A DNA stretch of 64,000 bases from a virus, in IMG/VR virus record IMGVR_UViG_3300028535_000001; one strand, written 5' to 3'. The notes below the pieces were generated by a model that saw only the letters and a program-made list of their open reading frames with translations, was not told where the DNA came from and did no database searches. Made by a program: the position numbers and the translations under genes. Of this stretch, positions 1-44,800 are shown in pieces. The stretch's first letter is position 1. Each line of letters begins with the position of its first letter.

Positions 1-702
1 ATCGTCTTCTTCTTTAAATGGATTCACACTTGTTGTTTTCCATTTCATTTTTCTAACCATAAGTTTTGACATAGCACCACTTGAAACAAAAGGTATGTTA
101 TGTTTTTTTAAAATTTCTAAATTTTTATCATTAAATTTATCTAATATATTCATTAACTGTTTTGCTCTAGCAGCTGTAATCTTTCTACCTCTAAATGGTT
201 CGTATTCTTTTTTAAGAACCTTTAACATCATTGGTGTTATTGAATCAGCCACTTCATATAATATATCTTCTAATACTTCTTCTCCTAATATATCTCTAAC
301 AGTTTTAACTGAAAGTTTTAATCTCTTAGCAATCTTCTCAATACTATCACCTTCTTGATTTGCTGTGAATATATCTTTAATTCTACCTTCTTCTATATCT
401 GCTTGTTCATCAATAGCCTCCATAAATTTAATAACTTCTTCGTCTGATTCTTCTTTGAATACTATGTCTTTAAGTATGTTAACTTTAGCAGCTGCAATGG
501 CAACTTTAGTAGGCATATCCATTTTTTTAAGAATAGACTTAACTCCAGGAGTTACATCTTTCATAGTCTTCATAGCCCATGTGTTTTTTAAATTCGCTAT
601 CTGCTTATCAGATAAGACACCCATTAGAGTACTCTCTAATATGTTTGGTACCTCTCCGTAGGCCACAGCCATTGTTTTTCTATATGTACTAAAATCTTTC
701 AT
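1..702 (-). CDS. Hypothetical protein, C-terminally truncated by window edge (MKDFSTYRKTMAVAYGEVPNILES...)
   Basis: Not in the ORF track. ATG at 700-702 lies just after the stop of the 721 ORF. The frame was read open at both ends (...MVRKMKWKTTSVNPFKEEDD at position 1). Confidence 0.75.
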   Translation of the reverse strand, partial: MKDFSTYRKTMAVAYGEVPNILESTLMGVLSDKQIANLKNTWAMKTMKDVTPGVKSILKKMDMPTKVAIAAAKVNILKDIVFKEESDEEVIKFMEAIDEQADIEEGRIKDIFTANQEGDSIEKIAKRLKLSVKTVRDILGEEVLEDILYEVADSITPMMLKVLKKEYEPFRGRKITAARAKQLMNILDKFNDKNLEILKKHNIPFVSSGAMSKLMVRKMKWKTTSVNPFKEEDD

Positions 703-720
703 TTCTCTTTTTAATTGTGT

Positions 721-3039
721 TTATAAATCTTGTATCATCTTCGCTATCGTTTGATCCAACTTGATTTTCCACTCCTCCTTAAATCTCTGTTTATATTTAT
801 CTATTGTATCACTTGAACAAGCCCATTTATTTACATCTTTCTCTGATATTTTGGTATTTTCCAAGCCAGGTTGTGTAGGATAGCCTCTTTTCTTAGCGTC
901 CACAGGCGTTGCCTCTGGTGTTTCACCAGGAGTTACATCTTTTGTATGGTTGGCATAGTCAGCACCTATCTCAAAAGATTCTTTTTCTAATTTCTTAACA
1001 ATATCTTTCTTATATTCTTCAAATTTTTGTTTATATTTCTTTTCAGATACAGCCTCAAAACCATAGTCTACATTTAAATTATGTTCTCTAACTGCAACCT
1101 CTTTATCACTGGCGATTGGTATACAATCCCATATCCAGGCTTTGTGTAAATTGTTTTTATTATCTTCTAGTACAATATAGTTTGTACCTTTTCTCTTAAC
1201 TGTTCCTTGTATATCTTGTTTGGTATAGTCTACCTTTTCTCCGATATTGAATATCATGTCTCTTAAATATAGGTCTCTTATCTGTTGTTGACCAAATTCT
1301 TCCATGCTTAACATTGGTTTTTTGCCACCACCTAAATGAATATTAACTGAACTTTCTGGAATAGCACCTAGTCTCATACCTTTTCTAACATCTTTCATTA
1401 AATGGCTTGCGTCCACACCATTAGGTAACCCTCTTTTAAATCCTTCTAAATCTCCCTTAACAGCCGCCGCTCTCATTTTACTTGCACTCATACCTGAAGC
1501 TCCGTCTGCGTCTGGATCCCTTTCACCAGCTGACAACACATTAATGTTATCAAAGTTATAATAACCATGTCTTGATCTCACATCGTTATACTTGTTTAGT
1601 ATAGTTTCAAATTCTCTTACTCTATCACTACCTACTACCATAAAAATTTCTGTATAACCTTTGTTATGTAGATTAGTAGCAATATCTAATATCATATTTG
1701 TTTTATTAATTTCTATATTTCTTGCATGAGCAGGAAACATCTTTTTCATATATGATAATTTCTGACTAGCAGATAATGGATTCTTTTTACTGTCTTCACT
1801 TCTACTTAAATAAATTTTATGGTCGTTTGCTCTTACTGATTTAACTTTTCTAATAAGTTTTTCATGGCCAATAGTTGGTGGATTAAATCTACCAAAAGTA
1901 AATGCCATTGATTTTCTTCTTCTAACTGCCTCATGTACGGACTCTGGTAAGCCAGCGTCTCTAACTGCTTTACCAAATTCATTATAATCTATACCAGCAT
2001 GTTGAGCCGCCTTGTTCTTGGCGTCTTTCATACCTTGTCTTAAATATTTAAGATATAAATCTACACCTGCTTTCATTCTTGGTGCTTTGATTGTTCTTCT
2101 CATTAAATCATTCCAAGCACTAGCAACAGATTCTAAATTCATTTCATCTATTTGTTCTTTTGTTAAAGATTTTATTTCATCATCGGTAACTTTACCATCT
2201 TCTAAAACTTCTTTACACTTCTTATAAAATTTTAAGTAATGGTATTTTTCCAACATCTTATAGATAACTGCTTTAGGTAATCTATTTTTAATACCATATT
2301 TTCTTATTTGATCTGGTGTCATGTCACTATTAAATGCTGATCTTCTTTCTGCGTCAACACCATCACCTACTTTTACAATCTGTTCAATACTATCTTCTAT
2401 TTCTTCTAATTTCTCATTAATTTTTTCTTGTAGATTTAAAATATCATCTGGTTTTAATTCAATTAATTCATGGTAATCTATTATATCTCTCTTTAATTCA
2501 CCTTTAACTACATCTATTTCTTGTACTTTTCTTTCAAATTCTTTTACATATAAGTTTGTATCAAAAGAAAAATCTTCTGGTCTTTTAACAAACTCATCGT
2601 TTTCTATATCAAACACTGCGTCTGCTTTTTTATTTTGATCGTCATATGTTGTTTGATCTGTAATAAAATAATAATTGATTGGGTGTTTTGTGCCTGGTAT
2701 TAATTTACCTTGTATGTTATCAGGATTACTTGCTGACAAATACTTTTTAGATAGTGTTAATCTTTGTTCTTCTTGGTCTTTTTTTGGTACATCAAACAAT
2801 ATATTGATGTCTAGATCAGCGTCATTTCTATATCGCTTAGTTAGAATTGATCCTATTAATGCTATCTTAATCACAGGATATTCCTCAAATTTTTTAATCT
2901 GATCTTGTATTTGTTTCTTGACACTAGGTTTCATTTTAGGGTCTTTAGTATCGGCCTTATCAAATACACCTGGCGCATATGTTCTACGAGGTATATCTAT
3001 GATACTTTCTTGTATTGTAAATTCTTTAAAATTCTTCAT
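721..3039 (-). CDS. Multidomain protein: N-terminal Pol-beta-family nucleotidyltransferase fused to an HxGH cytidylyltransferase/NMNAT-like domain
   Basis: GSILT...DADLDINI is a GS..DxD motif. FTFGRFNPPTIGHEKL, VVGSDR and SASKMR fit the HxGH NTase superfamily. Start moved to MKNFKEF (3039) because it forms an ATGA overlap with the upstream stop. Confidence 0.75.
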   Translation of the reverse strand: MKNFKEFTIQESIIDIPRRTYAPGVFDKADTKDPKMKPSVKKQIQDQIKKFEEYPVIKIALIGSILTKRYRNDADLDINILFDVPKKDQEEQRLTLSKKYLSASNPDNIQGKLIPGTKHPINYYFITDQTTYDDQNKKADAVFDIENDEFVKRPEDFSFDTNLYVKEFERKVQEIDVVKGELKRDIIDYHELIELKPDDILNLQEKINEKLEEIEDSIEQIVKVGDGVDAERRSAFNSDMTPDQIRKYGIKNRLPKAVIYKMLEKYHYLKFYKKCKEVLEDGKVTDDEIKSLTKEQIDEMNLESVASAWNDLMRRTIKAPRMKAGVDLYLKYLRQGMKDAKNKAAQHAGIDYNEFGKAVRDAGLPESVHEAVRRRKSMAFTFGRFNPPTIGHEKLIRKVKSVRANDHKIYLSRSEDSKKNPLSASQKLSYMKKMFPAHARNIEINKTNMILDIATNLHNKGYTEIFMVVGSDRVREFETILNKYNDVRSRHGYYNFDNINVLSAGERDPDADGASGMSASKMRAAAVKGDLEGFKRGLPNGVDASHLMKDVRKGMRLGAIPESSVNIHLGGGKKPMLSMEEFGQQQIRDLYLRDMIFNIGEKVDYTKQDIQGTVKRKGTNYIVLEDNKNNLHKAWIWDCIPIASDKEVAVREHNLNVDYGFEAVSEKKYKQKFEEYKKDIVKKLEKESFEIGADYANHTKDVTPGETPEATPVDAKKRGYPTQPGLENTKISEKDVNKWACSSDTIDKYKQRFKEEWKIKLDQTIAKMIQDL

Positions 3040-3728
3040 ACTCTTTTCTTTGCTTGTAATTCTTTTGCTATCCACTGTTTGGCTAGATAGTTATTTGGTG
3101 TTTTATTAATATATCTTCTAATATATTTTGAAGCTGTTGCAATTGTATTGGTTACTAATTCTTTTTCAGACCTATTATTATCCACAATTAACAAGTTTTG
3201 TGGTCTGAATATACTTTGAAAAGAACCAATGTTAGATTGTACTTTTATCCAACTATTCTTTACAATGTATTCAGGTATTGATCTAGGTCTATTCTTGTTT
3301 CTTTCTACTGCAACCTCTAAACTTGTGTTTACAAAAATCATATAACAATCATAACCAAGTGCTGTTAACATTGAATGTTGTCTAGAGATTATAGATTTAT
3401 CACGACCAGTTGCGTCAATAACAAGACCTAATCTTCCTTTTACATAGGTATCTAATTGAGTATTCGCTGTAAGTTTTGCTCTGTCTCGTACTATATTTCT
3501 AAAGTATTCTTCCTGATCTGGCATTTTCAAAGATAGATTTGCCTTCAACAATCCTCTTTCAAAGATAGTATCCGAGTTTACTATTTTTAATCCTATGCCA
3601 GCAAAAGCGGCTTGTGTAACAAATGATTTACCTGAACCAGGTCCACCTGCTAAGAAGAAAGCTTTAAAAATGCCTCTGTCATAAACACCTTCATTTAAAA
3701 AGCTTTGTACTTCTTTTAAGTTTTTCAT
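3036..3728 (-). CDS. P-loop kinase (zeta-toxin/AAA_33-like)
   Basis: FLAGGPGSGKS Walker A, VNSD, LVIDATG, AVERNKNRPR lid motif. Confidence 0.7.
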   Translation of the reverse strand: MKNLKEVQSFLNEGVYDRGIFKAFFLAGGPGSGKSFVTQAAFAGIGLKIVNSDTIFERGLLKANLSLKMPDQEEYFRNIVRDRAKLTANTQLDTYVKGRLGLVIDATGRDKSIISRQHSMLTALGYDCYMIFVNTSLEVAVERNKNRPRSIPEYIVKNSWIKVQSNIGSFQSIFRPQNLLIVDNNRSEKELVTNTIATASKYIRRYINKTPNNYLAKQWIAKELQAKKRV

Positions 3729-4375
3729 TACTCTCCCGCTTTTGTATACTTCTTATATTTTTTTGTTGTTTTTTTATCCACCACTCCAGCTTGACTTTGC
3801 TCTACCATTATTTCGTTCATGTCTTTAGCATAGTCTCTTATAGCATTAACAACTGCGAAAAGACCGTCTCGTCTTTTTGGAGTTAATACATCTATGAAAC
3901 CTATTCCAGCAATTTGATTGTCGTCCACTTCCAAAATTTCTTTTGGTGGGTGTCCTGATAAAATTGATTGAAGTATATACATTGCTCCTCTTGCCTCGTG
4001 AGAATCAGCGTCTACTTCAAATTCCATGTTTTCACCTTTAAGCTGTGGTAATAACCATACTTGGCTTACACAACCATATATTCTATAACCGTTTATTCTT
4101 TTATCGTCATCAAGTTTAACTATGCCACGTCCTTGTTCTAGCATATAGTAAAACTTTTCTTTGTCATCCAATTGAGAAAAATTATGGCTCCATGTACCAA
4201 GCTTTTCCTGGATTGACATACCAGCCATTTGACTGTCGCCAAATACAGGCGTCTTCTCTGTTTCCATCATTTCTTTCTCCTCTTGTTCTGCAACTTTTAT
4301 TTCAGCATCCATATTTTTTTTAGCTGACTTTGCAATTGCTTTGGATAGTTTTTTCATACCACCTTTTATATACAT
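3728..4375 (-). CDS. sufE: SufE/CsdE-family Fe-S sulfur-acceptor protein with N-terminal extension
   Basis: IYGCVSQVWL (conserved Cys), DADS...RG, LTPKRRDGL, all typical of SufE. Confidence 0.85.
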   Translation of the reverse strand: MYIKGGMKKLSKAIAKSAKKNMDAEIKVAEQEEKEMMETEKTPVFGDSQMAGMSIQEKLGTWSHNFSQLDDKEKFYYMLEQGRGIVKLDDDKRINGYRIYGCVSQVWLLPQLKGENMEFEVDADSHEARGAMYILQSILSGHPPKEILEVDDNQIAGIGFIDVLTPKRRDGLFAVVNAIRDYAKDMNEIMVEQSQAGVVDKKTTKKYKKYTKAGE

Positions 4376-4384
4376 TATATCTCC

Positions 4385-4621
4385 TTAATTTGTTTCTTCT
4401 TGTCTAATGTCTGTATTAGTTTCATCAACTTCAGGTGCTTGTGGTCCAAATGCACCACTTCCAGCATTAAGTAATTGATTAATCATATCAATCGCTACAT
4501 CTTTATTATCATTAGCAATATTTTCTTTCACCGCCTCTAATACATCAACTGTTGTACTTAAACCATTAATTGTATTATCTTCTTCTGGTGTTGGAAATTT
4601 TATTCCATTTTTATCAACCAT
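4385..4621 (-). CDS. Hypothetical acidic protein
   Basis: ORF in operon context with an AGGAG SD. Confidence 0.7.
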   Translation of the reverse strand: MVDKNGIKFPTPEEDNTINGLSTTVDVLEAVKENIANDNKDVAIDMINQLLNAGSGAFGPQAPEVDETNTDIRQEETN

Positions 4622-4637
4622 TTTATTCTCCTTTTCA

Positions 4638-5222
4638 TTATTTGTTTTTAACCTTATTTATTATCTTCTTAGCTATACTCTCTGGCGTATCACCTTCTGC
4701 TTTAATAGATACGAAACCAGGTTTATCTCTGTAGTAGTCAACCACAGGACCTGTTTCTTTTTTATATAAAGCAATTCTGTCTTTAATAACATCAGGTTTA
4801 TCATCAACTCTACCTCTAGCAGTTAGTCTTTTGATAACTTCTTCCTGACTTACATCTAAAAATACCACATTATCTATATCAATACCTTTCTTTTCCATGT
4901 CTCTAACTTGTTGCATATATCTTGGAAAGCCATCAAATACAAAACCATCTGCTTTGTCAACGGCGTCAAATACAAGTTTTAAAACTATATCATTTGGAGC
5001 AAAGTGACCTTTACCTAAATTAGATAATCTTTTGGCCATTTCACCACCTTTTTCTTTCTCTTTTCTCAATAGTTCACCTGGGTATATGTGTGGTATATTA
5101 AATTCATTTGATATAAATTTTGCATATGTAGATTTACCACTGCCTGGACCACCAATTAAAATAATTTTTGGTTGTCTAGCTTCTTCTAAAAATTTGTTTA
5201 TGTACTCTATAAATGATTTCAT
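4638..5222 (-). CDS. adk: Adenylate kinase (short-lid type)
   Basis: GGPGSGKST, GELLR, FDGFPR, RGRVDD...RIALY motifs. Confidence 0.9.
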   Translation of the reverse strand: MKSFIEYINKFLEEARQPKIILIGGPGSGKSTYAKFISNEFNIPHIYPGELLRKEKEKGGEMAKRLSNLGKGHFAPNDIVLKLVFDAVDKADGFVFDGFPRYMQQVRDMEKKGIDIDNVVFLDVSQEEVIKRLTARGRVDDKPDVIKDRIALYKKETGPVVDYYRDKPGFVSIKAEGDTPESIAKKIINKVKNK

Positions 5223-5356
5223 TTTCTTTTTCTCATCATTCTCTTTTTTTTAAGAAGAAAATAAGCATATGCTTTATTACTTTTCTTTTTTCTTTTCTTT
5301 TCTTTTTCTATTGGTGCTGAATTAAATTCATACGTAGCACTGTAAATATTATTCAT
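5219..5356 (-). CDS. 45-aa very basic protein (MNNIYSATYEFNSAPIEKEKKRKKKSNKAYAYFLLKKKRMMRKRK)
   Basis: Translated by hand. TAATG overlap with the upstream gene and ATGA overlap with adk indicate translational coupling. Confidence 0.65.
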   Translation of the reverse strand: MNNIYSATYEFNSAPIEKEKKRKKKSNKAYAYFLLKKKRMMRKRK

Positions 5357-6576
5357 TATCCCTTTACCCAATCCTTACTAATCGTGAAGTTGGCTCTACT
5401 AAATTCTAGTCTATCTACAAGTTTAACTGCACCTGCTGATCTATCTACTGCAACATAACCCTCTGGATTGGTTACTCTAAAACCATTTGATGTTCTAATA
5501 AAATGACCTATACTTTGTATTTGTGATAACTTTGATATTAAAAAGTTCTTTGCATTACCTAAACTTACGTGAGAAGCTATAGCAAAATACAATGCTGATT
5601 CATTTCTATCAATCCATTTTAAATTAGTATCTAATATATCTCTATATTTTTGTTTACCTTTTTCGGTTTTTCTAGTTGCTATTTCTTCTTTTAAAATATT
5701 TCCATAATAGTCTCTGAACATTTTTTGGAGTTGTTTAATCTTACCCATATGTCCTTGTGTGTTTCTAATATAATGATTAAAGAAAGCCTTCAATCTAAAA
5801 CCTACTGATAACGAATCACTTGATCTTGACATTTCATTTAATATAGATGAAGCTTTACCTAAAGAACCTTCAGCCATTCTAATTAGTCCATCAAATCTAG
5901 ATAGTTCTCCTTTAGTAAACGTTGATGATCCAGATGTATCGGTATATCCAGCACTTGCTAACCACACTGCTGAAGAACCTGATCTACCTGTTATTGTTCC
6001 AAAACCAGCACTTAAACTTTTCATATCTTTACCATGATAAGTTGTATGAAATACAATTCCCATTCTTGCTCTTCTAATTTTTCTACCAATACTGCTACTT
6101 GCCTGTACTGCATATGTGATTGTATTTGGTGTGAAAGTTATCATGGGTTCGCCATCTATAACTTGTTGTTTTGTATCGTTTGTAAAGAGTAAATCTCCTT
6201 GGTAGATACCTCTTATTCTTAATTTTTTTAATTCTCTTAAGCAGACGTTTAATTTATCTGCAACAGGACCACTATGATTACTCATAATATCTCCCGATGT
6301 ATAATTGATTTTTGGCTTGACGTTGAATACTGATTTAGTACCAACAAAGAATTTACCGTTTTCTGGATTTATACCACATATAATAGCAGGAGCTCCGTCC
6401 CACTTGACAGACATATTTACTTTAGCTCCAGAAGACCCTACTAACATGTTTCTAACTGACTTTAGAAACCTTATAGCATTATCTCCACCTTTGGAACCTC
6501 TATTGATTATGTCATCTTCTAGATGTTCTAAATGTGTATTCTTTTCCTTTGTTATGAAACCTTTAAAATTAAACAT
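5356..6576 (-). CDS. Conserved marine T4-like phage protein (DUF6267-like) with ATP-dependent ligase-type motifs
   Basis: KNTHLEHLED start, VKWDGAP (KxDG), YQGDL, EGYV, VKLV, in the order of covalent nucleotidyltransferase motifs I/III/IV/V. Confidence 0.6.
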   Translation of the reverse strand: MFNFKGFITKEKNTHLEHLEDDIINRGSKGGDNAIRFLKSVRNMLVGSSGAKVNMSVKWDGAPAIICGINPENGKFFVGTKSVFNVKPKINYTSGDIMSNHSGPVADKLNVCLRELKKLRIRGIYQGDLLFTNDTKQQVIDGEPMITFTPNTITYAVQASSSIGRKIRRARMGIVFHTTYHGKDMKSLSAGFGTITGRSGSSAVWLASAGYTDTSGSSTFTKGELSRFDGLIRMAEGSLGKASSILNEMSRSSDSLSVGFRLKAFFNHYIRNTQGHMGKIKQLQKMFRDYYGNILKEEIATRKTEKGKQKYRDILDTNLKWIDRNESALYFAIASHVSLGNAKNFLISKLSQIQSIGHFIRTSNGFRVTNPEGYVAVDRSAGAVKLVDRLEFSRANFTISKDWVKG

Positions 6577-6635
6577 TTGTCCTTCATTCTTTCCATAAAT
6601 TAATTCACTTTCTCATATCTTAAATCATTTGCTTA

Positions 6636-6643
6636 TATTTATA
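6636..6643 (-). promoter_or_regulatory. T4-type late promoter TATAAATA
   Basis: Exact TATAAATA on the minus strand, intergenic, upstream of the 406-aa gene; gp55 is encoded in the window. Confidence 0.7.
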
Positions 6644-8065
6644 CTAGTACAACTTGCCAAATGGACCAAATTGTTGCCCTCGTTTCTCTGCCAAAAACAC
6701 CATGTCCGTCAGCATTTTATTTCTTTTTGCTGTAGGTATAGCGTATATAACATATAAGAAATCTAACTCCATTAATTTAGTATGAGATACACCGTTCCTT
6801 AAATCTGGAGAGTTATACGACTTCAACATATTACCAATAAATGCTGACGCTGGTATACCTGTATCTGTATGTCTATTGACTACATCAAATCTTGTCTTAT
6901 ATATATTTTTTACTTTGTCAAATTCTGCTAATGATTTAGGATATAGATTATGATTATTCACAAAGAATAATTTTTTATTATTTCCTATACCATACTCTGC
7001 CATTAATTTTGCTAATAAATCTACTGGTACTTTACCTATACGAGCTGCACCAGCACCTTTAAATTTACCATCAAATTTTAAATTCTGATTAAATCCTTTT
7101 CCGTTTTGTCTAATTTGAAACTCGCAAACATCGTTAGATGATTTAATATCTATTCTCATATCAGCTGATGATAATGTTTTGTCTGACTTGTTTGTCATTT
7201 TCATAGCTGATCTAGTTAACCTCATCACAAACTTACTGTCTTTCATTAATGCGTTTTTAGTATTTACTTCTTCAAATCTTGCCTCTTTACTGGTAACTTT
7301 CTTTAATGATATACCTGCTACTTTATGTTTTGAATATAATATCTTCATCACGTCATTTAGTTTAGAAATAGATACTGACTTTCCTTCCATAGCTTTGTTT
7401 ATAGTTCGTTTAACAGTACTCTCATTGTTTATTAACCAAATATCGGCAGGATTCCAACTATCTTTTTTTGAAATCTTAAACTTATCTCTTATTAAGTTAG
7501 AGATATAATCCATAAAACCACCGTCTCTATTATATTCTGTGAAGTTTTTACCTCTAAAAATTTCTAACATCTTTTTTTGTTGTGCATAAAAACTATCTAA
7601 CCAACCATCTTCCATAACATCTGGATATATCGCCACTAGTTCTTTATATTTCTTGTCTTTAGATATATCTTCAGCACTTGTATATCTAATCTTATCTTTT
7701 AATGATCTTTTAATAATCCAAAGTGAGGCTCTTTCTTGTTTCTGTACAACTTGTGCGTCTAATTGTTTTACAGATTTTTTACCTGTCTCAATAAATCTTA
7801 TCTTATAATCTTGTACGATAAAGTCAGCAGATAGTTTGGCACCTGATTTAACAGTAGCTGTATATTTTTTCTTTAATGTAGGTAGTACTTTTTTTAGATT
7901 GTCTGGAGATACTTTAACTGTATATACTCTAGACTTTGTGACAGGAGAATCATCGCCATAGTAGGCGCCCTCTACCATTAACTTTAATAAAGATATAAAC
8001 TCACCTTTAATATTTGATGGTACGTGTTGTTCTAATGTTGAAACCGTTGCTAAATTGTACGCCAT
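6644..8065 (-). CDS. Hypothetical protein, putative PD-(D/E)xK-like nuclease
   Basis: QE...WNPADIW...GISLKK pattern resembles the restriction-endonuclease-like fold; the protein is basic. Confidence 0.45.
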   Translation of the reverse strand: MAYNLATVSTLEQHVPSNIKGEFISLLKLMVEGAYYGDDSPVTKSRVYTVKVSPDNLKKVLPTLKKKYTATVKSGAKLSADFIVQDYKIRFIETGKKSVKQLDAQVVQKQERASLWIIKRSLKDKIRYTSAEDISKDKKYKELVAIYPDVMEDGWLDSFYAQQKKMLEIFRGKNFTEYNRDGGFMDYISNLIRDKFKISKKDSWNPADIWLINNESTVKRTINKAMEGKSVSISKLNDVMKILYSKHKVAGISLKKVTSKEARFEEVNTKNALMKDSKFVMRLTRSAMKMTNKSDKTLSSADMRIDIKSSNDVCEFQIRQNGKGFNQNLKFDGKFKGAGAARIGKVPVDLLAKLMAEYGIGNNKKLFFVNNHNLYPKSLAEFDKVKNIYKTRFDVVNRHTDTGIPASAFIGNMLKSYNSPDLRNGVSHTKLMELDFLYVIYAIPTAKRNKMLTDMVFLAEKRGQQFGPFGKLY

Positions 8066-8068
8066 AAT

Positions 8069-8097
8069 TCTTTCTTATACCATATTTATAAGAAAGA
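8069..8097 (-). promoter_or_regulatory. Late promoter (8083-8090) embedded in an 11-bp hairpin covering the translation-initiation region
   Basis: TCTTTCTTATA-7nt-TATAAGAAAGA perfect inverted repeat ending 3 nt before the ATG at 8065. Confidence 0.7.
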
Positions 8098-8105
8098 GGC
8101 AAGAG

Positions 8106-8366
8106 TTAATGCTCGTTAATCCAGAACATTTTAGGGATACCGCCGTTCTTTTCCCATACTTTATTTTTGTTTTGAAACTTAACTAATTTATCTGCGTCTT
8201 CCTCAAAAAAGTAAGTTGCAACTATACTATTGGTAGGTTTTTCTTTAACTTGCCATAGTATTTTCCGACCTTTTTTAATCATACCTTTAGTATATGATAA
8301 TTTAGGATAATCTTTTCTTGGTCGTCTATCGCTTTTACTAAATCTTACTTTTTGTATTTTTGGCAT
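8106..8366 (-). CDS. Hypothetical basic protein
   Basis: ORF track; operon context. Confidence 0.7.
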   Translation of the reverse strand: MPKIQKVRFSKSDRRPRKDYPKLSYTKGMIKKGRKILWQVKEKPTNSIVATYFFEEDADKLVKFQNKNKVWEKNGGIPKMFWINEH

Positions 8367-8368
8367 AA

Positions 8369-8491
8369 TTATTTAATAAAGAAATGATAAATTAATAATC
8401 CTATTATTAGACCTTCAATCCAGGCACCTAGGCAAAACCATACTGGATACTTTCGTATTAGATTTATTTTCCAATTCCAATATTTTTTCAT
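8369..8491 (-). CDS. 40-aa membrane micro-protein (MKKYWNWKINLIRKYPVWFCLGAWIEGLIIGLLIYHFFIK)
   Basis: Hand-translated; AGGAG SD; fills the intergenic gap; one hydrophobic helix. Confidence 0.65.
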   Translation of the reverse strand: MKKYWNWKINLIRKYPVWFCLGAWIEGLIIGLLIYHFFIK

Positions 8492-8505
8492 TTATATATC
8501 TCCTT

Positions 8506-8688
8506 TTATTGTGACCATTTAAATGTTTGTGTAATAGTAAAATTCTCTGAATTATAATCACCATTCACACTATCACCATCTTGACCAGTATTACCATATT
8601 TTAATGTAGTAGTATCTGGTTTAAATGTTTGATTTGAACATCCAGCCAATCCAATTATTAATAATAAACTAAATATAATTGTTCGCAT
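8506..8688 (-). CDS. Small lipoprotein
   Basis: Signal peptide with lipobox LAG|C. Confidence 0.7.
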   Translation of the reverse strand: MRTIIFSLLLIIGLAGCSNQTFKPDTTTLKYGNTGQDGDSVNGDYNSENFTITQTFKWSQ

Positions 8689-9175
8689 ATTTCATTCCTT
8701 TCTTTACTGTTAAAACTATTAGTGATGTATATACTATAGTGCTTAGTAGTGTATTATGAAAGAACGGTATCGCCATTGTATAACACATTATTAAACCTTC
8801 AATTGTTTTGGGATAATAATCCCACATAGTCCATACTGCAAAGTTTGTTATTATAAAAAATAATATAGAAGATAAAATTGCCATTATACCTAACTGCATA
8901 TATTCTTTATCAAAACGCATTGACAAATTACTAATTAGTGTTGATAATCCTATTGCTCCATACACCCATAACATATATGGATGAAACCCTATCCATAAAT
9001 CTGCAATAAACATTGCTAATAATGGAAGTGACATTGCAACCCATTTATCTTTGATTAGATATGGAGCATAGATTGCTGTTGCTAAAATTGGTGTAAAATT
9101 CGGTGGGTGTGGAATAATTCTTCCCAAGGCAAGAATAAATGAAATGAATAGAAATGTTATAATAGTTTTTATCAT
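8669..9175 (-). CDS. Integral membrane protein, DUF6580-like (putative ECF S-component-like transporter)
   Basis: RIIPHPPNFTP motif, about 5-6 hydrophobic segments, ITNFAVW, CYTMAIPFF. Confidence 0.65.
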   Translation of the reverse strand: MIKTIITFLFISFILALGRIIPHPPNFTPILATAIYAPYLIKDKWVAMSLPLLAMFIADLWIGFHPYMLWVYGAIGLSTLISNLSMRFDKEYMQLGIMAILSSILFFIITNFAVWTMWDYYPKTIEGLIMCYTMAIPFFHNTLLSTIVYTSLIVLTVKKGMKYANNYI

Positions 9176-10542
9176 ACTTTAAAATCTGAAAACTTATCAT
9201 AAGGATTTTTTCCTGATGGTTTACTTTCAGTTCCTTTATCTACTATATTTTGTGCTGTGTTTTGTACATCATATAATTTCATTTTTGATCTATCTACACC
9301 TACAATAAATGATCTATTAATTGCTGGGTCGTTATACCTATTCTTTAATTGTTTTACTTTCATTTGACCTAGTTGTTCTAATTCTTCGTTTGATTGTAAA
9401 GCAAACATAAAGTCAGCCGTTGCTGGTAAACCAAAAGACTCTGCTGTATCTTCTAAACCAATATCTGTACTTGTATAACCAGTTCTAGTTGTTTGTGTAG
9501 CACTGAAAATAGGTAGATCAAACTCTACTGCTAGACCTCTTAATTCTTCAGCAATAGCCTTAATATAAAAGTATGATGATATATTACCACCTTTAAATCT
9601 ACTTGAAGCACATATGTTTAAATAATCTATAAACAATACTTGTGGTTTAAAAGATTTCTTTAAAGCAAGTTCATTTAATAATGCTCTAAAATGTCCACTA
9701 TGAGCAGACGCTGTTGGATATTCTTTAATGATGAATTGACCTTTAGTTTTATCTTGTAACCTTTTAAGTTTATCTTCGTATAAAGATTTAGGCATATCAT
9801 GGAGATCGTCCATAGATACATCTAATAAGTTAGCGTCTATTCTTTCTGCAATTCTTTCCTCTGCCATTTCTAAAGTGATATACAATACATTTAAACCTTG
9901 TGCTAAAAAACTACTAGCACAATGACACATAAACAAAGACTTACCTACACCTGTACCTGCCAATGCAATATTCAAAGTCTTACTTGGTACACCACCTTTT
10001 GTAATTCTATTAAAATAACTTAAATCAAATTGGAATTTTTTCTCTTTAGTATGATACCAATTGAATCTTTCCTCACTATCATTTAAATAGTCGTGACCAA
10101 TATGATTGTCAAATGAAACTGCTAAGGCGTCAGCCAAGATACTTGGTATTGCCTCTGGTGATCTCTTACTATCTTTCTTATCTAATATCTTAATACCCTC
10201 TAATACTGCATTATGGACTGCTCTGTCTTTACAAAACTTTTCTGTTGTATCAATCAGCCAATTCTGGTCAACATCTTCAGGATTTAATACTTCTAATAAA
10301 TCTTTTACTGTTCTTACATCGTCATCATTTAAATCTTTTCTATAACCCATTTCAACCATAATGGTTTCTTTGGTAGGAAGATTATTATACTTTGATATGA
10401 AAGCATATATTTCTGTAAACAAAATATTTTCTTCTCGTTTTGCAAAGTATATTTCTTTTAAGAAAGGTATAGCCTTTCTCATGTACGCTTCATTGTACAT
10501 CAAGTTTCTTAATATACTTATTTCAATTCGTTCATTATTCAT
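9172..10542 (-). CDS. 41: Replicative DNA helicase, T4 gp41-like
   Basis: LAGTGVGKS, ITLEMAEERI, IDYLNIC, SATQTTR, KQLKNRY. Confidence 0.95.
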   Translation of the reverse strand: MNNERIEISILRNLMYNEAYMRKAIPFLKEIYFAKREENILFTEIYAFISKYNNLPTKETIMVEMGYRKDLNDDDVRTVKDLLEVLNPEDVDQNWLIDTTEKFCKDRAVHNAVLEGIKILDKKDSKRSPEAIPSILADALAVSFDNHIGHDYLNDSEERFNWYHTKEKKFQFDLSYFNRITKGGVPSKTLNIALAGTGVGKSLFMCHCASSFLAQGLNVLYITLEMAEERIAERIDANLLDVSMDDLHDMPKSLYEDKLKRLQDKTKGQFIIKEYPTASAHSGHFRALLNELALKKSFKPQVLFIDYLNICASSRFKGGNISSYFYIKAIAEELRGLAVEFDLPIFSATQTTRTGYTSTDIGLEDTAESFGLPATADFMFALQSNEELEQLGQMKVKQLKNRYNDPAINRSFIVGVDRSKMKLYDVQNTAQNIVDKGTESKPSGKNPYDKFSDFKV

Positions 10543-17995: not shown

Positions 17996-19462
17996 TTACT
18001 TCTGTTCTTTGTCAACCGGTTTTAGTCTTTTACTTAATACAAACGTTCTATTAGGGTTAACACTAACATTCATTTGTCTCATTAAATCTCTATTAATTAA
18101 TAAGTCTGATCCTGATCTTGGTCTACTATCTAATCCTACCTCTACATCTTTATAGGTAAAACCATTAAAGGTTAAATCTAATAATATTGTAGGTCTAATT
18201 TCAGAAGGTTCGTTTGTAGCATTTGCTCTAAAAATTTTACTTTGACCAAATTTAGGTTTCTCATAAGTTTTACCGTTATATTTCCATTTAACAGTTTTCT
18301 TATCTGACATAATTTTATCGGCATGTAAAGCACAAGCTTTTGATCCGTTACCACTATCAAACTTAGCTCTAACTTTAGCTACATCGGCAACGTCAACAGT
18401 TTCTAACCAACCACATTCTATAAGTGATTGTCTATCCCAATGACTTCTATCTTGAACATAATCAACAAGATATTCCATCATTTTTTCACCGTCTATTCTA
18501 CCAGATGGTTCTGGATCAGAATAATAATCCTTGTATTGGTAACCTTGATAGTCAGCACCTGATCCTGGACTACCATTGATTTCTAAAATGTATGGTTTTT
18601 TATTGTGTATTATATGGTCAACTCCTACCATATATGCCTTTGAAGCTCTTGAAGCTTTTAAAATTAGTTCATGTTCTTCATCATTTAAAACATAAGGGTG
18701 TGCCTCGGCACCTCTATGAGTATTTGATCTAAAGTCATATGAGCTATGTACTCTTTTTGTACTTGCAATAACTTTGTTATCTAAACAGAAAGTTCTTACA
18801 TCAAACTTGACAGGCATAAATTCTTGTATTAAAAGTTCAGATTCTAATTTCCACATTGCTTGTACAGTTGCAACAAGACCCTCATAACTTTCAATTTTAA
18901 TTACTCCGATACCTTGTGTACCTGTTAATGTCTTTAAGATAAGTGGAAACTTACCACCAATCATATCTATTCCAGTTCTTATATTATTCTCGTTAGATAT
19001 AAATGCTGTTCTTGGTGTAGCTATACCAAACTTTTCAAATAGTAAAGCTGACGTTAATTTGTTATCACAAGTCATCATAGCTGCTCTTGTGTTTAACATA
19101 AATGATTGTGAGTTTTGAAAGGCAGAGATTAAAGACAGTCCAGCTTCGTTCTCCACTGCACCACCTCGTGTTACAACAACGGTATCTTTACCTGTAAAGG
19201 TATGTTCACCATTCTTACCATCGTAATTATAGACAGTAAGGGTGTTCTTATCTTCGTCTTTTGCTGTGATTATAGTAGATGTAGTATTAACAATAACGCA
19301 TTTAGTCTTTTGTTTTTTACACGCCTTTTCTATAAGTTCAACAGTTGAATCCTTTTGAGGATCCTCTGAATCATTTATAGTAAGTATAGCAACCGTAATC
19401 GGTTTATCTTTACGACCTTGGTTTTGCTCTGTTATATAATCTCTAAACTTTGGTATCTGCAT
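17996..19462 (-). CDS. rimK: RimK-family ATP-grasp ligase fused to a C-terminal RimB-like (retropepsin-fold) protease
   Basis: CDNKL, PLILKTLTGTQGIGV, IQEF, DVR, FRSNTHRG, GVD, LEINGSPG; C-terminal GWLE...AKFDSG...RP...LLINRD. Confidence 0.8.
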   Translation of the reverse strand: MQIPKFRDYITEQNQGRKDKPITVAILTINDSEDPQKDSTVELIEKACKKQKTKCVIVNTTSTIITAKDEDKNTLTVYNYDGKNGEHTFTGKDTVVVTRGGAVENEAGLSLISAFQNSQSFMLNTRAAMMTCDNKLTSALLFEKFGIATPRTAFISNENNIRTGIDMIGGKFPLILKTLTGTQGIGVIKIESYEGLVATVQAMWKLESELLIQEFMPVKFDVRTFCLDNKVIASTKRVHSSYDFRSNTHRGAEAHPYVLNDEEHELILKASRASKAYMVGVDHIIHNKKPYILEINGSPGSGADYQGYQYKDYYSDPEPSGRIDGEKMMEYLVDYVQDRSHWDRQSLIECGWLETVDVADVAKVRAKFDSGNGSKACALHADKIMSDKKTVKWKYNGKTYEKPKFGQSKIFRANATNEPSEIRPTILLDLTFNGFTYKDVEVGLDSRPRSGSDLLINRDLMRQMNVSVNPNRTFVLSKRLKPVDKEQK

Positions 19463-33453: not shown

Positions 33454-34462
33454 ACTCTTTTAGTTTTGTCTTATCTAAATCAGTATCTACCTGTTCAATA
33501 TAGTTACCTAAAAATGTTAATGTATCTTCGCCTTGATCTATAGTATCTACCTTAACTGTTTGTGTAATATCAGTTGTATCTTCATTAATAATCAATTCAT
33601 GTACATTGGTATTGTTGTAAAATCTTTCTACTAGATTGCTATACATTTCTTTATTTTTACACCTGTTTACAAATAGTTTTACAAAACAATTATCGTAAGA
33701 GGATAAATCTAAATTGTCATAGTTTTCTTTTGTATCATCATATATTAATTTTTTAAATATAGGTAAAGGGTTCTCTATTCGTTCTAATTCTCTTGTGTCT
33801 GTATCAAATATATGAAAACCTTTTGGACAATTATAATCTGACCACATAATTTGATATTGTGTACCTAGATAAAAGATATGGCCATCATCTGATTTCTTAT
33901 GAAAATGACCAGATAATACTTTTTCAAATCTTCTAAATTGTTCTCTATCAAGTCCTTGTTCATTTACAATTCCTCTATGCATTTCAAAGCCTTTTATTTC
34001 TAAATGACCCATAACAATTTGAGCTGTTGTATTATCTATTTTATATAAAGTATCTTCTATATTGGCTTCACATATCCATGGTATAAACAATATATCTAAT
34101 CCACCAAGATTTATATCTGTTGCTCTTGTATATGTTGTAATTTTTCCTAGATTTAAATTTTGTATAGCATTTACTTCGTTAGTATTTTTATAATAGGTAT
34201 CGTGATTACCCAATATAACGTGAGTATCTATATTCAATTCTTCTAATTTATCCCAAAAATTTAGTCTAAAATTGTGGGCTGTGTTGTGATTAATAAACTT
34301 ACGTCTATCAACAACGTCACCTAAATGTACTAAACATTTTATATCGTTATCAATAATATAAGGAAAAAATTGTTCCTCGTAAAACTTATTTTGATAGTTT
34401 ATAAAGTGTGGAGAATCATTACGGCAACCAAAGTGTGTATCATTTAATAGGGCTATTTTCAT
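33419..34462 (-). CDS. 47: Recombination endonuclease subunit gp47 (Mre11/SbcD-like)
   Basis: DTHFG, HLGD, GNHD, GHLE, SGHFH. Confidence 0.95.
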   Translation of the reverse strand: MKIALLNDTHFGCRNDSPHFINYQNKFYEEQFFPYIIDNDIKCLVHLGDVVDRRKFINHNTAHNFRLNFWDKLEELNIDTHVILGNHDTYYKNTNEVNAIQNLNLGKITTYTRATDINLGGLDILFIPWICEANIEDTLYKIDNTTAQIVMGHLEIKGFEMHRGIVNEQGLDREQFRRFEKVLSGHFHKKSDDGHIFYLGTQYQIMWSDYNCPKGFHIFDTDTRELERIENPLPIFKKLIYDDTKENYDNLDLSSYDNCFVKLFVNRCKNKEMYSNLVERFYNNTNVHELIINEDTTDITQTVKVDTIDQGEDTLTFLGNYIEQVDTDLDKTKLKEFAKELYTEASE

Positions 34463-35030
34463 CTTTTTTAAAAAAATAATCTAAACTATTCTTACTCGTC
34501 CTTTTTTTACGTTTTATTTTACTTTTTGCTACTTCTTCAGCTATTTTCTCTTGTGAATCCATAGGTAAGTTCTTTTGTAAATACTCTGTCATTTGATTTT
34601 TAAACTCTCTATCGTCACCTGGTTGGAGAGCAAAGTCATCTAAATTTGATTTACTAATAAGTTTGTGTTTAATCGTCACTTGTTTTTTCTCTTTTTGTAT
34701 TCTACGTATAAAAGCATAGTAGATTATTTGAGTAAAATAAGCGAAAGGATTGTTAGATTTTTTGCCATCAAAGTTGTCAAGGTATTGTAGACAGTTTTCT
34801 ATACCATCTGAAATCATGTCATCTTTGAATGTGTAATTTATGAAATTTGGTCTATATGAAAGGTGATTGGCAATCTTCAAAAAACAGGATCCAAGGTAGT
34901 TTCCTACTGCTGGTTTATCTTGTTTTTCTCTTATTGCTTTTCGTACAGCTTTTTTGTACTTGTTCATCGCTTCCAGAAACTCTTTATTATTAACGTAGTG
35001 TTCTTTCTTCGTTTTTGATTTTGCAGTCAT
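34440..35030 (-). CDS. 55: Late-transcription sigma factor gp55
   Basis: HYVNNKEF, RPNFINY, DMISDGIENC, NPFAYFTQI. Confidence 0.95.
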   Translation of the reverse strand: MTAKSKTKKEHYVNNKEFLEAMNKYKKAVRKAIREKQDKPAVGNYLGSCFLKIANHLSYRPNFINYTFKDDMISDGIENCLQYLDNFDGKKSNNPFAYFTQIIYYAFIRRIQKEKKQVTIKHKLISKSNLDDFALQPGDDREFKNQMTEYLQKNLPMDSQEKIAEEVAKSKIKRKKRTSKNSLDYFFKKDENSPIK

Positions 35031-41545: not shown

Positions 41546-42880
41546 TTACATTATGTTTGATACTTTAACTTTTTGGTAATATCTGTTTGAGTTAGGTGTA
41601 CCAGAATCAGTGATTCCAGTTACAGCACCCGAAGCAGCACCAGTTTCCGCAAAAGGATTAGCAACTAGACCGTATCTAGTTTTAAATCCAATTTTTGGTT
41701 GGAAAGTATCTTGACCAACAGCACGAACCATTTGTAATGGAACATACGGACAATAGAACATACCAGCGTCATAAGGTGAAGTACCTTTGTAACCGACAAC
41801 GTAATATTGACTAGCGCTTGAGTTAGCACTATATGGATCAATGTACACTTTAAATCTACCGTTTAATACACCAGCGAATGTGCTACCAGTGTCGTCAACG
41901 TTTAGATTGTTGTTTAATGCAGGCGTGTAATCTAAAACACCAGCCATTTGAAGAGCACTAGCAACATCAGCAGAGCAGATAATCATATTACCTTTTCCAC
42001 GTCTTGTTCTTTGTGCGATTCTGTTTGCGTCTCTTTCCAATTGGAACATAAGACCTTTGAATCTTTCAACTGACCATCTACCGTTTGAGTCTGTATCTAA
42101 ATCAAATACACCAGCAGTAGTTGTGTTTGTAGCAGCGCCTTTTTCTGAATTGATATAAACAGCTCTTACAACTTCTCTGTTGATTTCCGCAAGGATTTCA
42201 GCAGATAGAATGTTTGCAAGTTCTGTTTCAGCGTCTAAGCCATGGATTGCTTTTAAATCTTGAGCAAGTTCCATAGTATATTCTGCTTTAAGAGCTCTAC
42301 TTCTCGCCGTCACTGTAGTTTTCTCAATTGAGAAAGCCATTTCAGCAAATGCGTTTGCAGTAGCGTCGCCTAATGCCTCAGCCGCAGCTGTAGTCATACC
42401 TTGACCTCTAGTATACTCGCCAGCCGGTGCGTCATTAAGAACAGAAGGATTAGTTCCTCTATGCTCAGTAACACCATCGTGAGTAACTGAATCGCCAGCA
42501 GCATTTCTAGATGAGTAATCAGTGTCAGCTTCGTCAAATAGTGCTTCACCACCAGTTGCAGAAGTATATCTTGATCTCATTGCGAAAATAAGTCCTGTTG
42601 GACCAGTCATTGGTTGAACACCAGCAATATCGTATGCGATAAGGTTTGGCATTGCTCTTCGTACTAATGAAATTAAAATTGGATCCCAATTTGAAGTTCC
42701 AGCAGTATTATTCGTAGGAGCAGCTTCACTTAAAAATGCGCTGTCCTCCTTCATAGCTCTTTCTTGGTTTTCCAAGATAGTAGCCGTAACGGCACGTTTG
42801 TAAGAGTCTCCGATTTTTGGTAAATCAGGGTGCTCTAACACAGGCTGCCATTTTTTTTCGTATTGTTCTGATAAATACAT
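41546..42880 (-). CDS. 23: Major capsid protein gp23
   Basis: LVRRAMPNLIAYD..GVQPMTGPTG, SRALKAEYT.ELAQDLKAIHGLDAE, FQPKIGFKTRYG. Confidence 0.98.
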   Translation of the reverse strand: MYLSEQYEKKWQPVLEHPDLPKIGDSYKRAVTATILENQERAMKEDSAFLSEAAPTNNTAGTSNWDPILISLVRRAMPNLIAYDIAGVQPMTGPTGLIFAMRSRYTSATGGEALFDEADTDYSSRNAAGDSVTHDGVTEHRGTNPSVLNDAPAGEYTRGQGMTTAAAEALGDATANAFAEMAFSIEKTTVTARSRALKAEYTMELAQDLKAIHGLDAETELANILSAEILAEINREVVRAVYINSEKGAATNTTTAGVFDLDTDSNGRWSVERFKGLMFQLERDANRIAQRTRRGKGNMIICSADVASALQMAGVLDYTPALNNNLNVDDTGSTFAGVLNGRFKVYIDPYSANSSASQYYVVGYKGTSPYDAGMFYCPYVPLQMVRAVGQDTFQPKIGFKTRYGLVANPFAETGAASGAVTGITDSGTPNSNRYYQKVKVSNIM

Positions 42881-42903: not shown

Positions 42904-44079
42904 TTACTTTGTTGATAATTTAATATCTTTTGTCTGACTTATAGCGGCACTATAAGCAGCCATTGCATTGCTAAGGTCTTCGTTTTGACCGTCGCCTGCC
43001 GCTACATCATCGTGTCCGTCACCAGCTGCGTCTTTAGTTTTAAAATAACTTTCTTTTATGATTGCTATCTTAGCTCTAAAATCTGCCTCTGTTGAATAAT
43101 CCACTTCTTCAGCAAGCTTGTTGAACTTTTCTTTAGCTGTGTCAGTTAAATCTTTAGATGTTTCATCTAAAATTTCAGCTGCTTTATACTTGTTAGCTGA
43201 CTTACTTAATTCAACATTCTTTTCAATTGATTCGTTAAGTTTCTTTTCTAACGTTTCAATCTTTGAAGCTTGATCTTCAAGTACATTATATTTTTCATCT
43301 GGAACATTTATGTAATGGTCTTCAAATAATTTTTTAAGACCACTGATAAAGTCCTCAGCGATTTCGCCTTTGATCCCTCTTTCTAAAGCAAGTTCATTTT
43401 CTTTCATCCACTCCTCTACCACGTATGATAGATAAGAGTCGACTTTTTCAACTAACTCAGCTTTAGTACTAGAAGTTTCGCTCTCGAATTTTTTATTATA
43501 ATCTGCTTCCATTTCTTCTGCAATTTCTTTAACTTTAGATTTAATTGCTGTTTCAAAAATCGTTGCAGCTTTTGTTTTGAACTCTTCCGATAAATCAGTA
43601 TTTCCAGCTACTAAAGCGTCAACATGTTCTTTTACGTCTATGTCTTTCTCTTTAGTTTCTTCTTTCTTCTCGTCATCTTTTTTCGCTTCAACTTCTTCAG
43701 TTTTAGCTTCCTTGTCATCTTTTTTGTCAAGGTGTTTTTTCAGACCAGCAGGAAGTTCGCCTTCTTTTACTGTAGATTTATCTTCGGTGTCCGTTGCTGT
43801 TTCTTTTTTCTCCTCTTTTTTTAATGTAGGCATACCGTCAGGTTTACCTTCATGTTTTTGAGCAGGTTGTCCAGAAACAGTTTTAACTGTTTTTGAAGCA
43901 TCCGGATTGCTGTCAGTAGGTTTAACTACAGGAGCACCTAAATCCTCGGCATCGTTTTTCAGATGAGTTGGTTCAGCTGCAACAGCATTTTTTTTCGGAA
44001 GATCAGCATTCGGGTTAGCATTCTCAGCTACCGCTTTTTGATCTTTTGTTGCCTCAATTTTTTTGTCTATTTCGGCCAT
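42904..44079 (-). CDS. 22: Prohead core scaffold gp22
   Basis: LSEEFK.KA.TIFE.A, VDSYL.YVVEEW..EN; synteny. Confidence 0.92.
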   Translation of the reverse strand: MAEIDKKIEATKDQKAVAENANPNADLPKKNAVAAEPTHLKNDAEDLGAPVVKPTDSNPDASKTVKTVSGQPAQKHEGKPDGMPTLKKEEKKETATDTEDKSTVKEGELPAGLKKHLDKKDDKEAKTEEVEAKKDDEKKEETKEKDIDVKEHVDALVAGNTDLSEEFKTKAATIFETAIKSKVKEIAEEMEADYNKKFESETSSTKAELVEKVDSYLSYVVEEWMKENELALERGIKGEIAEDFISGLKKLFEDHYINVPDEKYNVLEDQASKIETLEKKLNESIEKNVELSKSANKYKAAEILDETSKDLTDTAKEKFNKLAEEVDYSTEADFRAKIAIIKESYFKTKDAAGDGHDDVAAGDGQNEDLSNAMAAYSAAISQTKDIKLSTK

Positions 44080-44155: not shown

Positions 44156-44800
44156 CTAGAGTTTTTTAAGAAAGCTTTTAAAGACATCCGCCTTCGCTTC
44201 CGCTAAAGCATGACTTTTTGCAGCCTCTATGTCTCGTTTCCAAGCGCTTAAGTCTTTTTCAACGAGCACACCATTGTCCCAAACCCACTCTTTACTCTCC
44301 ATTATGCCTTCTACGAAAGCGTCTGGAGCGCTAGGGTCTGCAACAATATCAGCGGCTGTAGCTAAATAAAAATCTCTACCTACATAATTTACACCACCTC
44401 TTGTTTGTAACGAACCCATACCTCGTGATGATACACCTAATTGAGCGCCTTCATCTATAAGACCTTTCACGATCTTACCGTATGGGGTATTCATTATCTT
44501 AGCTTCACCAATAAAATTAGTTCCATCTGGATGAAGTTTAGTTATCATATGACTAACTCTTTCCAAATTAACAGTTGGAGAATCAGGATGTCCTAACTCG
44601 CCAAAAGCCCTTCTTTTATTAATAAATTCTCTATTATATCTGTTTACTTCTTTTTCAAGTATGCTTTTTTCATAAACACGTCCATTTTTATTTCTAATTT
44701 CTGATTGTAAAAAGATACCTCTAATTTTGTAGTCCTTTTTTCCATTGTTATCTTCTACAATGTACTCTGCATTTTGGACTTCTTCGGATATTAATCTCAT
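44156..44800 (-). CDS. 21: Prohead protease gp21
   Basis: GELGHP, VSH, GVSSRGMGS, DIVADPSAPDA. Confidence 0.96.
   Translation of the reverse strand: MRLISEEVQNAEYIVEDNNGKKDYKIRGIFLQSEIRNKNGRVYEKSILEKEVNRYNREFINKRRAFGELGHPDSPTVNLERVSHMITKLHPDGTNFIGEAKIMNTPYGKIVKGLIDEGAQLGVSSRGMGSLQTRGGVNYVGRDFYLATAADIVADPSAPDAFVEGIMESKEWVWDNGVLVEKDLSAWKRDIEAAKSHALAEAKADVFKSFLKKL

Follow-up and report, generated by a model that had tools for sequence, protein, structure and literature searches.

Leaders resembling the T4 capsid targeting sequence on late-operon enzymes of a marine T4-like phage

Why would enzymes of unrelated folds, encoded side by side in a late operon of a marine phage, begin with similar N-terminal sequences? 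This question is raised by a stretch of 64,000 nucleotides from the IMG/VR virus record IMGVR_UViG_3300028535_000001, referred to here as the window. The window is T4-like marine myovirus DNA, with a GC content of about 31% and nearly all of its genes on the minus strand. Among isolates, Pelagibacter phage HTVC008M and Methylophilales phage Melnitz (both Kyanoviridae) come nearest, with about 70% nucleotide identity over short stretches only, and the phage is a pelagimyophage, a T4-like virus of ocean SAR11-type bacteria. A preliminary description of this DNA proposed that the shared leaders are capsid targeting sequences (CTS) by which late enzymes are loaded into the prohead. The analysis presented here supports this proposal, since the leaders and the late promoter are kept among relatives, gp21, gp22 and a gp55-like protein are encoded in the same window, and leaders coincide with virion detection in the cyanophage S-CREM2. 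We consider it likely that three of the enzymes, namely a nucleotidyltransferase (NTase) fusion, a P-loop kinase and an adenylate kinase (Adk), are loaded into the prohead via their leader and trimmed by the gp21 protease, while a DUF6267 protein and a RimK fusion, whose leaders are atypical, are probable further cargo.

The CTS of the T4 internal proteins IPI, IPII and IPIII was reportedly defined by Mullaney and Black in 1996. It has been reviewed since (PMC9026906, PMC3012670): the first 10 residues of IPIII are sufficient for incorporation into the head, and mutagenesis assigned targeting to residues 4 and 7 and processing to residues 8 and 10, with an Asp at position 10 blocking cleavage and keeping targeting (PMC9026906). 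Foreign enzymes as large as beta-galactosidase, once fused to this leader, are packaged and delivered to the host (PMC9026906). Reading the IPI and IPII/III leaders from NC_000866 gave the sequences with which the window had previously been compared. By analogy with these proteins, the late-operon enzymes would carry a natural T4-type CTS of 10-14 residues, which typically begins M-K-x-(F/Y/L)-x-x-(F/Y/V) and has (L/I)-x-E at its end. Through this leader, the enzyme would dock, once synthesised, to the gp22 core that scaffolds the prohead as it grows, and gp21 would cut after the Glu, leaving the mature enzyme free inside the head. As in T4, the enzyme may then exit with the DNA at the next infection, and the cargo could act before any phage gene expression, in end healing and sealing or in NAD/ATP charging.

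The minus-strand operon runs from 6576 to 721 and comprises seven genes, four of them with T4 capsid-targeting-like leaders. Because neighbouring genes overlap or sit no more than 18 nt apart, the block is most simply read as one late transcription unit. Its elements, together with the RimK fusion encoded elsewhere in the window, are the following:

6636-6643, minus strand: T4-type late promoter TATAAATA, an exact match, at the head of the operon.
5356-6576, minus strand: DUF6267 protein of 406 residues, starting MFNFKGFITKE; leader at residues 1-11 (6544-6576).
5219-5371, minus strand: basic open reading frame (ORF) of 45-50 residues, without leader.
4638-5222, minus strand: adenylate kinase of 194 residues, starting MKSFIEYINKFLEE; leader of about 14-17 residues (5181-5222).
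4385-4621, minus strand: ORF of 78 residues, without leader and without family.
3728-4375, minus strand: SufE-like protein of 215 residues (PF02657, 91.2 bits, residues 65-181), without capsid-targeting-like leader.
3036-3728, minus strand: P-loop kinase of the zeta-toxin / AAA_33 / PNK-PSTK type, 230 residues, starting MKNLKEVQSFLNE; leader at residues 1-13 (3690-3728).
721-3039, minus strand: fusion of a Pol-beta-type NTase and a HIGH-motif cytidylyltransferase/NMNAT-like domain, 772 residues, starting MKNFKEFTIQE; leader at residues 1-11 (3007-3039).
17996-19462, minus strand: RimK-family ATP-grasp ligase fusion of 488 residues, starting MQIPKFRDYITE; offset leader at residues 1-12 (19427-19462).

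In the translations of the window ORFs, the N-termini of the four operon enzymes and of the RimK fusion read exactly as the preliminary description had quoted them. The exact late promoter that it placed before the block was also found: the TATAAATA at 6636-6643 overlaps the stop of the upstream gene, and the ATG of the DUF6267 gene lies 59 nt further on. Among relatives, for which all homologue counts given here come from 160 related IMG/VR loci, 61 of 71 loci have the same octamer in the 120 nt before the DUF6267 gene, in comparison with 0 or 1 match upstream of the replication-side families of those loci. The octamer is in no excess in the window as a whole (14 copies versus 17 in shuffles); 13 of the 14 copies are on the coding strand, with structural genes downstream of most of them. 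Matches to sigma-70-type promoters in positions 1-9300 stay at shuffle level (46 versus 47.7), giving no evidence of an early promoter inside the block.

The leaders share the positions that matter in T4. Aromatic or hydrophobic residues occupy positions 4 and 7 in the NTase fusion (F4/F7), Adk (F4/Y7), the DUF6267 protein (F4/F7) and the kinase (L4/V7), and an (L/I)-x-E stands at the leader end of the NTase fusion (IQE), the kinase (LNE), Adk (LEE) and the RimK fusion (ITE), the last of which keeps the residue spacing of a T4-type leader with a shift of 2-3 residues. The leaders are short N-terminal extensions added to unrelated folds: the catalytic domains behind them begin at residue 25 for AAA_33 and at residue 13 for DUF6267, residues 1-15 of the latter being disordered in the structure model, and the Adk leader counts as an extension because the NCBIfam Adk models begin only at residue 18-20. 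When the 77 ORFs of the window were ranked with a leader profile that drew on T4, S-CREM2 and S-SM1 leaders only, the kinase, the NTase fusion and the DUF6267 protein took the top three places, and the probability that all three would fall within the seven-gene block by chance is about 5e-4.

Some details of gene starts should be mentioned here. The NTase fusion has an in-frame upstream extension (3040-3075) with a GTG start, which overlaps the end of the kinase gene; 10 of its 31 relatives have an ATG extension giving M-D-G-x-R-K-K. Since the other 21 lack an upstream extension, the ATG at 3039, which overlaps the stop of the kinase gene as ATGA, is predicted as the more probable start. The SufE-like protein carries a Lys/Glu-rich N-terminal extension of about 60 residues, in which I-Q-E (residues 55-57) immediately precedes the SufE domain, and its start is not leader-like. 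The ORF at 1-702, which starts M-K-D-F-S-T-Y, was considered as a sixth leader and dropped, its relatives beginning at S/T-R-Y-R-K-T-M without any extension.

Among homologues, the leader pattern is conserved while its sequence and length vary. In all 48 distinct kinase homologues, LxE (36) or IxE (12) directly precedes the conserved G-[LVI]-Y-D, after leaders mostly of 10-14 residues. In the NTase fusion, all 31 homologues likewise place the Glu immediately ahead of a conserved [SA]-I-I-D-I-P-R, 26 of them with I/L/V/F/M three residues from the leader end (P3), and the leader is present in all 25 Adk homologues, five of which use a GTG start. F4 and F7 of the DUF6267 leader are invariant, and 80 of 80 RimK relatives start M-x-x-P-K-F-[KR]-x-[FY], followed nearly always by I-T-E. 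The strict 10-residue T4-type pattern is matched by 11 of 26 Adk members, Adk being the only family with matches among those having homologues in the related loci, in contrast to none in the replication-side families of the same loci (0/68, 0/49, 0/49 and 0/27, about 190 members). Conservation of the leader and its enrichment over replication proteins, which had been named among the tests of the proposal, were both found.

Leaders also appear in other phages. Genes 15-18 of Melnitz, located after a TATAAATA, have them too, the leader of the cytidyltransferase gene 18 being one residue shorter; the cytidylyltransferases of S-SM1 and S-CRM01 have strict leaders at their start; and one is also found on the DUF6267 homologue that the T4-like Stenotrophomonas phage DLP_6 encodes.

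Two observations on relatives can be added. In five related loci (L068:2913-3200, L078:9223-9510, L081:5958-6245, L082:3167-3445 and L007:7496-7783), the DUF6267 gene is directly followed by a gene for a protein of 92-95 residues, whose first eleven residues all but match the T4 IPII/III leader plus its next Ala, and which is likely, judging from this start, to be a classical internal protein; its only counterpart in the window is the very basic ORF at 5219-5371. In S-CRM01 g128 (L170:1878-2429) and S-CREM2 ORF12 (L084:7704-10313), a segment of the form hydrophobic-x-x-S-F-[IM]-x-E-A-A occurs 15-25 residues after the annotated start, so that either the true starts lie further downstream than annotated or a preamble is tolerated by the signal, as in the RimK fusion of the window.

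CTS cargo needs a phage that makes both gp21, the protease, and gp22, the scaffolding core. The window encodes both of them, as well as the gp20 portal, the capsid protein and a late sigma factor:

44156-44800, minus strand: gp21 prohead protease (Peptidase_S77, 117 bits), 62% identical to the S-CREM2 prohead protease.
42904-44079, minus strand: gp22 scaffolding core protein (PF25623 T4_CASP, 236 bits).
41546-42880, minus strand: gp23 major capsid protein (PF07068, 494 bits, match from residue 63).
34440-35030, minus strand: gp55-like late sigma factor, 47% identical (E 1e-41) to S-CREM2 ORF153, which is annotated as the RNA polymerase sigma factor for late transcription.

The capsid protein provides a further link. 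Its predicted maturation site is L-S-E before Ala, at residues 50-52, and the stretch leading to it, residues 43-52 (42727-42754; M-K-E-D-S-A-F-L-S-E, then Ala), is the top match to the leader profile in the window. Because of this match, the leader end and the gp23 cleavage site look like one protease signal, which fits a single protease reading both.

A comparison with particles was possible for S-CREM2, whose genome (174,876 bp, 48% GC) was assembled from the public record and whose published virion proteome comprises 52 of 221 ORFs (Table 3 of that study), all of them shotgun identifications without N-terminal peptides. Searching the 175 kb in six frames and with all start codons for the T4-type pattern returned exactly four ORFs, all detected in virions:

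S-CREM2 pattern matches: ORF6 (S-adenosylmethionine (SAM) hydrolase), ORF13, ORF14 (APH-like kinase) and ORF154 (cytidylyltransferase).

A second profile was trained on T4 and on the IMG/VR relatives of the window, with no S-CREM2 data. Among the 4,841 candidate starts of S-CREM2, it placed ORF136, ORF14, ORF154 and ORF6 as the top four, with ORF13 as the fifth annotated start. All five top annotated starts belong to the virion proteome (hypergeometric p about 6e-4), the strongest of the tests made here. The octamer TATAAATA stands directly before ORF6, the ORF15-14-13-12 operon and ORF154, and ORF154 is homologous to the cytidylyltransferase domain of the window (34% identity over 282 residues).

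ORF136 (L086:27301-28014) is a hypothetical protein encoded between the small terminase and ORF137. With the best leader score of the genome and eight virion peptides, it is a candidate for cargo that had gone unrecognised. Downstream of the cytidylyltransferase by a few genes, S-SM1 gene 197 (L088:10313-10861) and S-CREM2 ORF160 (L083:9343-10236), both virion-detected, share in their start regions a Gly/Ala-rich segment followed by G-Y-D-P, which suggests that this region is a conserved neighbourhood of virion proteins. The S-CREM1 proteome (14 proteins) was left out as too shallow.

Several results weigh against the packaging of these enzymes, or at least against the uniformity of the signal. 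No ORF in the window matched the strict 10-residue pattern, because the leaders there are longer variants, of 11-14 residues and nearer to the long IPI type. The RimK fusion and Adk rank only 9 and 10 of 77 by the leader profile, even though both families carry clear leaders. The DUF6267 leader ends in T-K-E, so that a gp21-type (I/L)xE end is present in the other four proteins and not in this one. A late promoter, similarly, precedes the operon and not the RimK fusion, whose gene sits among replication genes and has a TATAAATA within 150 nt upstream in 0 of 80 loci. The corresponding genes of HTVC008M, the nearest isolate, have weaker leaders, the Cr30 cytidyltransferase has none, and neither does ORF87, the DUF6267 homologue of S-CREM2, which was not detected in virions. 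The S-CREM2 pattern was written after some of the leaders of that phage had been seen, so that only the profile test is truly out of sample. Finally, all the virion-level evidence comes from cyanophage relatives (five of five in S-CREM2, and S-SM1).

These points leave room for readings other than loading by a CTS. The leader might be a tag unrelated to the capsid, such as an element of late-gene translation or stability or a helix docking to a cytoplasmic complex, with the virion detections representing co-purified late proteins. The authors of the S-CREM2 study themselves raised contamination, cautioning that late proteins made in abundance could be purified along with the particles (PMC10665884). 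The detections all come from shotgun identification, which gave no N-terminal evidence, and the RimK fusion has the motif and no late promoter. Even so, we regard this explanation as unlikely, given that the motif matches a T4 sequence mapped residue by residue (PMC9026906), that the protein-level pattern holds at both 31% and 48% GC, and that the leaders end much like the predicted maturation site of gp23. An invariant Glu with L/I at P3, placed at the junction between leader and domain, is what a gp21 site predicts, whereas a translation element needs no such Glu. Least probable of all is that the similarity is a compositional accident of an AT-rich genome with Lys/Phe/Glu/Ile-rich N-termini. 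Even though M-K starts are common at about 31% GC and several leaders are only modest by the profile, the controls effectively refute this: strict matches are absent from the replication-side members of equally AT-rich loci, the top three of the 77 ORFs cluster in one operon, and S-CREM2, at 48% GC, has the same pattern coinciding with virion detection.

Another alternative accepts packaging and processing, and has the enzymes work within the head or remain in the emptied capsid, with a role in condensing the DNA or in maturing the head. In T4, some core proteins are indeed degraded or left in the head. However, the T4 users of the leader, IPI-III and the engineered fusions alike, reach the host (PMC9026906), and a DNA-filled head offers no obvious substrate to Adk or to a polynucleotide-type kinase, so that we give this possibility little credit. 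Loading via the leader and trimming by gp21 is accordingly the reading followed below. By the T4 analogy, ejection into the host with the DNA would follow, and the early roles that come into question are RNA end repair, restoration of ATP/NAD, signal handling and anti-defence.

What the cargo could do depends on the identity of the enzymes. The DUF6267 protein (PF19782, 395.6 bits) has a K-x-D-G motif (K58, D60, G61) invariant in the 25 homologues. A model of its isolated core domain (predicted local distance difference test, pLDDT, 73) finds its best structural matches in ligase adenylyltransferase domains, all at Z of 6.0 or below, headed by RNA editing ligase 1 (1xdn_A; Z 6.0, root-mean-square deviation 2.8, 96 aligned residues); RNA or DNA ligases fill about 20 of the top 36 rows, including Trl1, T4 Rnl1/Rnl2 and the Pnkp/Hen1 ligase. 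Searched by sequence, this protein matched neither a ligase family nor a PDB entry, and with the full-length model Foldseek gave noise and VIA-align was dominated by the helical C-terminal half. These core matches are suggestive of a ligase- or adenylyltransferase-like protein. Adk is clear-cut (PF00406, 120.4 bits against a gathering score of 26.8, residues 22-167), with the P-loop G-G-P-G-S-G-K. The kinase matches AAA_33 (46.1 bits, cut-off 27) and Zeta_toxin (35, cut-off 22.3), its PSTK and polynucleotide-kinase matches being weak and far below their cut-offs. Sequence searches of the PDB with the kinase and with the NTase fusion returned no matches.

The NTase fusion belongs to CTP_transf_like (PF01467, 29.8 bits against a gathering score of 21) and to the cytidyltransferase family phrog_395 (7.5e-64), with the H-x-G-H-type motif T-I-G-H within F-G-R-F-N-P-P-T-I-G-H; its Pol-beta NTase families score below cut-offs. 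The label nicotinamide mononucleotide adenylyltransferase (NMNAT), used in cyanophage papers, is not supported for it (TIGR01526, 23.9 versus a cut-off of 341). Its N-terminal NTase region gave no significant BLASTP match to the virion-detected S-CREM2 ORF156 (E 0.099), and no homology is claimed. The RimK fusion passes TIGR00768 (148.1 bits, cut-off 143.4, residues 36-300). Its C-terminal residues 397-477 weakly match the retropepsin-like peptidase RloA2 (E 0.003), an arrangement that recalls the RimK-retropepsin gene pairs of bacteria.

In other phages, phrog_455 joins DUF6267 with cytidyltransferase, and the kinase falls inside the 788-residue profile phrog_12810. Since PHROG families join these modules, the ligase-like, kinase and nucleotidyltransferase parts would seem to share a pathway. 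More weakly, the cargo set as a whole may be a kit for healing and sealing nucleic-acid ends or for nucleotide (NAD/ATP) charging.

Of the neighbours, the SufE-like protein is present in just 2 of the 80 related loci. The gene upstream of the operon also has its own late promoter, kept in five of five loci:

6644-8065, minus strand: phrog_1462 protein of 473 residues, without leader, upstream neighbour of the operon; own TATAAATA at 8083-8090.

The T4 mechanism is already known; what differs here is a predicted natural cargo of large enzymes and the link to virion enzymes of cyanophages that had remained unexplained. The cyanophage-core cytidylyltransferase was found in S-SM1 virions (Sullivan et al. 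2010; PMC3037559), and cytidylyltransferase/NMNAT-like proteins and kinases were later reported from several cyanophage virions, with no mechanism given and contamination left open (PMC10665884, PMC9602691). Such proteins, together with a SAM hydrolase, have thus recurred in cyanophage particles since 2010, and the leader offers a mechanism for their presence. Searches of the literature on capsid targeting and cyanophages, and on the T4 leader string, retrieved no paper linking leaders to virion enzymes of cyanophages or pelagiphages, most subscription journals being outside the search.

A broader and tentative reading, which we hold as possible without favouring it, is that the leader serves marine T4-like phages, pelagimyophages as well as cyanomyophages, as a general address label with which they inject a lineage-specific enzyme kit that would act in the first moments of infection, before transcription, repairing RNA or DNA ends or refilling ATP/NAD against abortive-infection defences. 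In the window, this kit would consist of the ligase-like protein, the polynucleotide-type kinase, two nucleotidyltransferases, Adk and the RimK ligase, and in S-CREM2 it would include the SAM hydrolase and a protein kinase. If this were true, adk, classed as an auxiliary metabolic gene in a pelagimyophage survey (PMC7029224), and other genes of that class would encode pre-made injected effectors rather than helpers made during infection, and the most abundant ocean phages would carry diverse first-minute enzymes for counter-defence or take-over. The leader would also serve as a sequence rule for predicting cargo from the genome alone.

Among known systems, RNA repair sets such as T4 Pnkp plus Rnl1, the fungal Trl1 ligase-kinase-cyclic phosphodiesterase (CPD) and bacterial Pnkp/Hen1 likewise pair an adenylyltransferase of ligase fold with a polynucleotide-type kinase that has a P-loop. 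However, the similarities are weak (Z of 6 or below; kinase below the family cut-offs), and no phosphatase or CPD module was seen in the window set. T4 Alt, an ADP-ribosyltransferase cut by gp21, is likewise an enzyme carried in the head, delivered with the DNA and acting before phage transcription, although its chemistry is unrelated and it has propeptides at both termini (PMC9026906) instead of an IP-type leader.

The closest likeness is to T4 IPI-III: a leader of 10-19 residues with K2, an aromatic or hydrophobic side chain at both 4 and 7 and an (L/I)-x-E end, on late proteins of a phage that also encodes gp21, gp22 and gp23; of the first eight residues, seven are identical between the NTase fusion and IPI. 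Whereas the T4 cargo consists of small basic proteins (IPI being a restriction inhibitor), that of the window would be enzymes of 194-772 residues and unrelated folds, with leaders varying between 10 and 14 residues, lacking L/I at P3 in the DUF6267 protein and offset in the RimK fusion, and with packaging predicted from sequence. The virion cytidylyltransferases of the cyanophages S-SM1, S-CREM2, S-SCSM1 and S-CRM01 share with the window a homologous domain (34-40% identity) and the leader type, and in S-CREM2 also the late promoter; in the window, by contrast, the domain forms one protein with a Pol-beta-type NTase and is accompanied by Adk, a PNK-like kinase and the DUF6267 protein.

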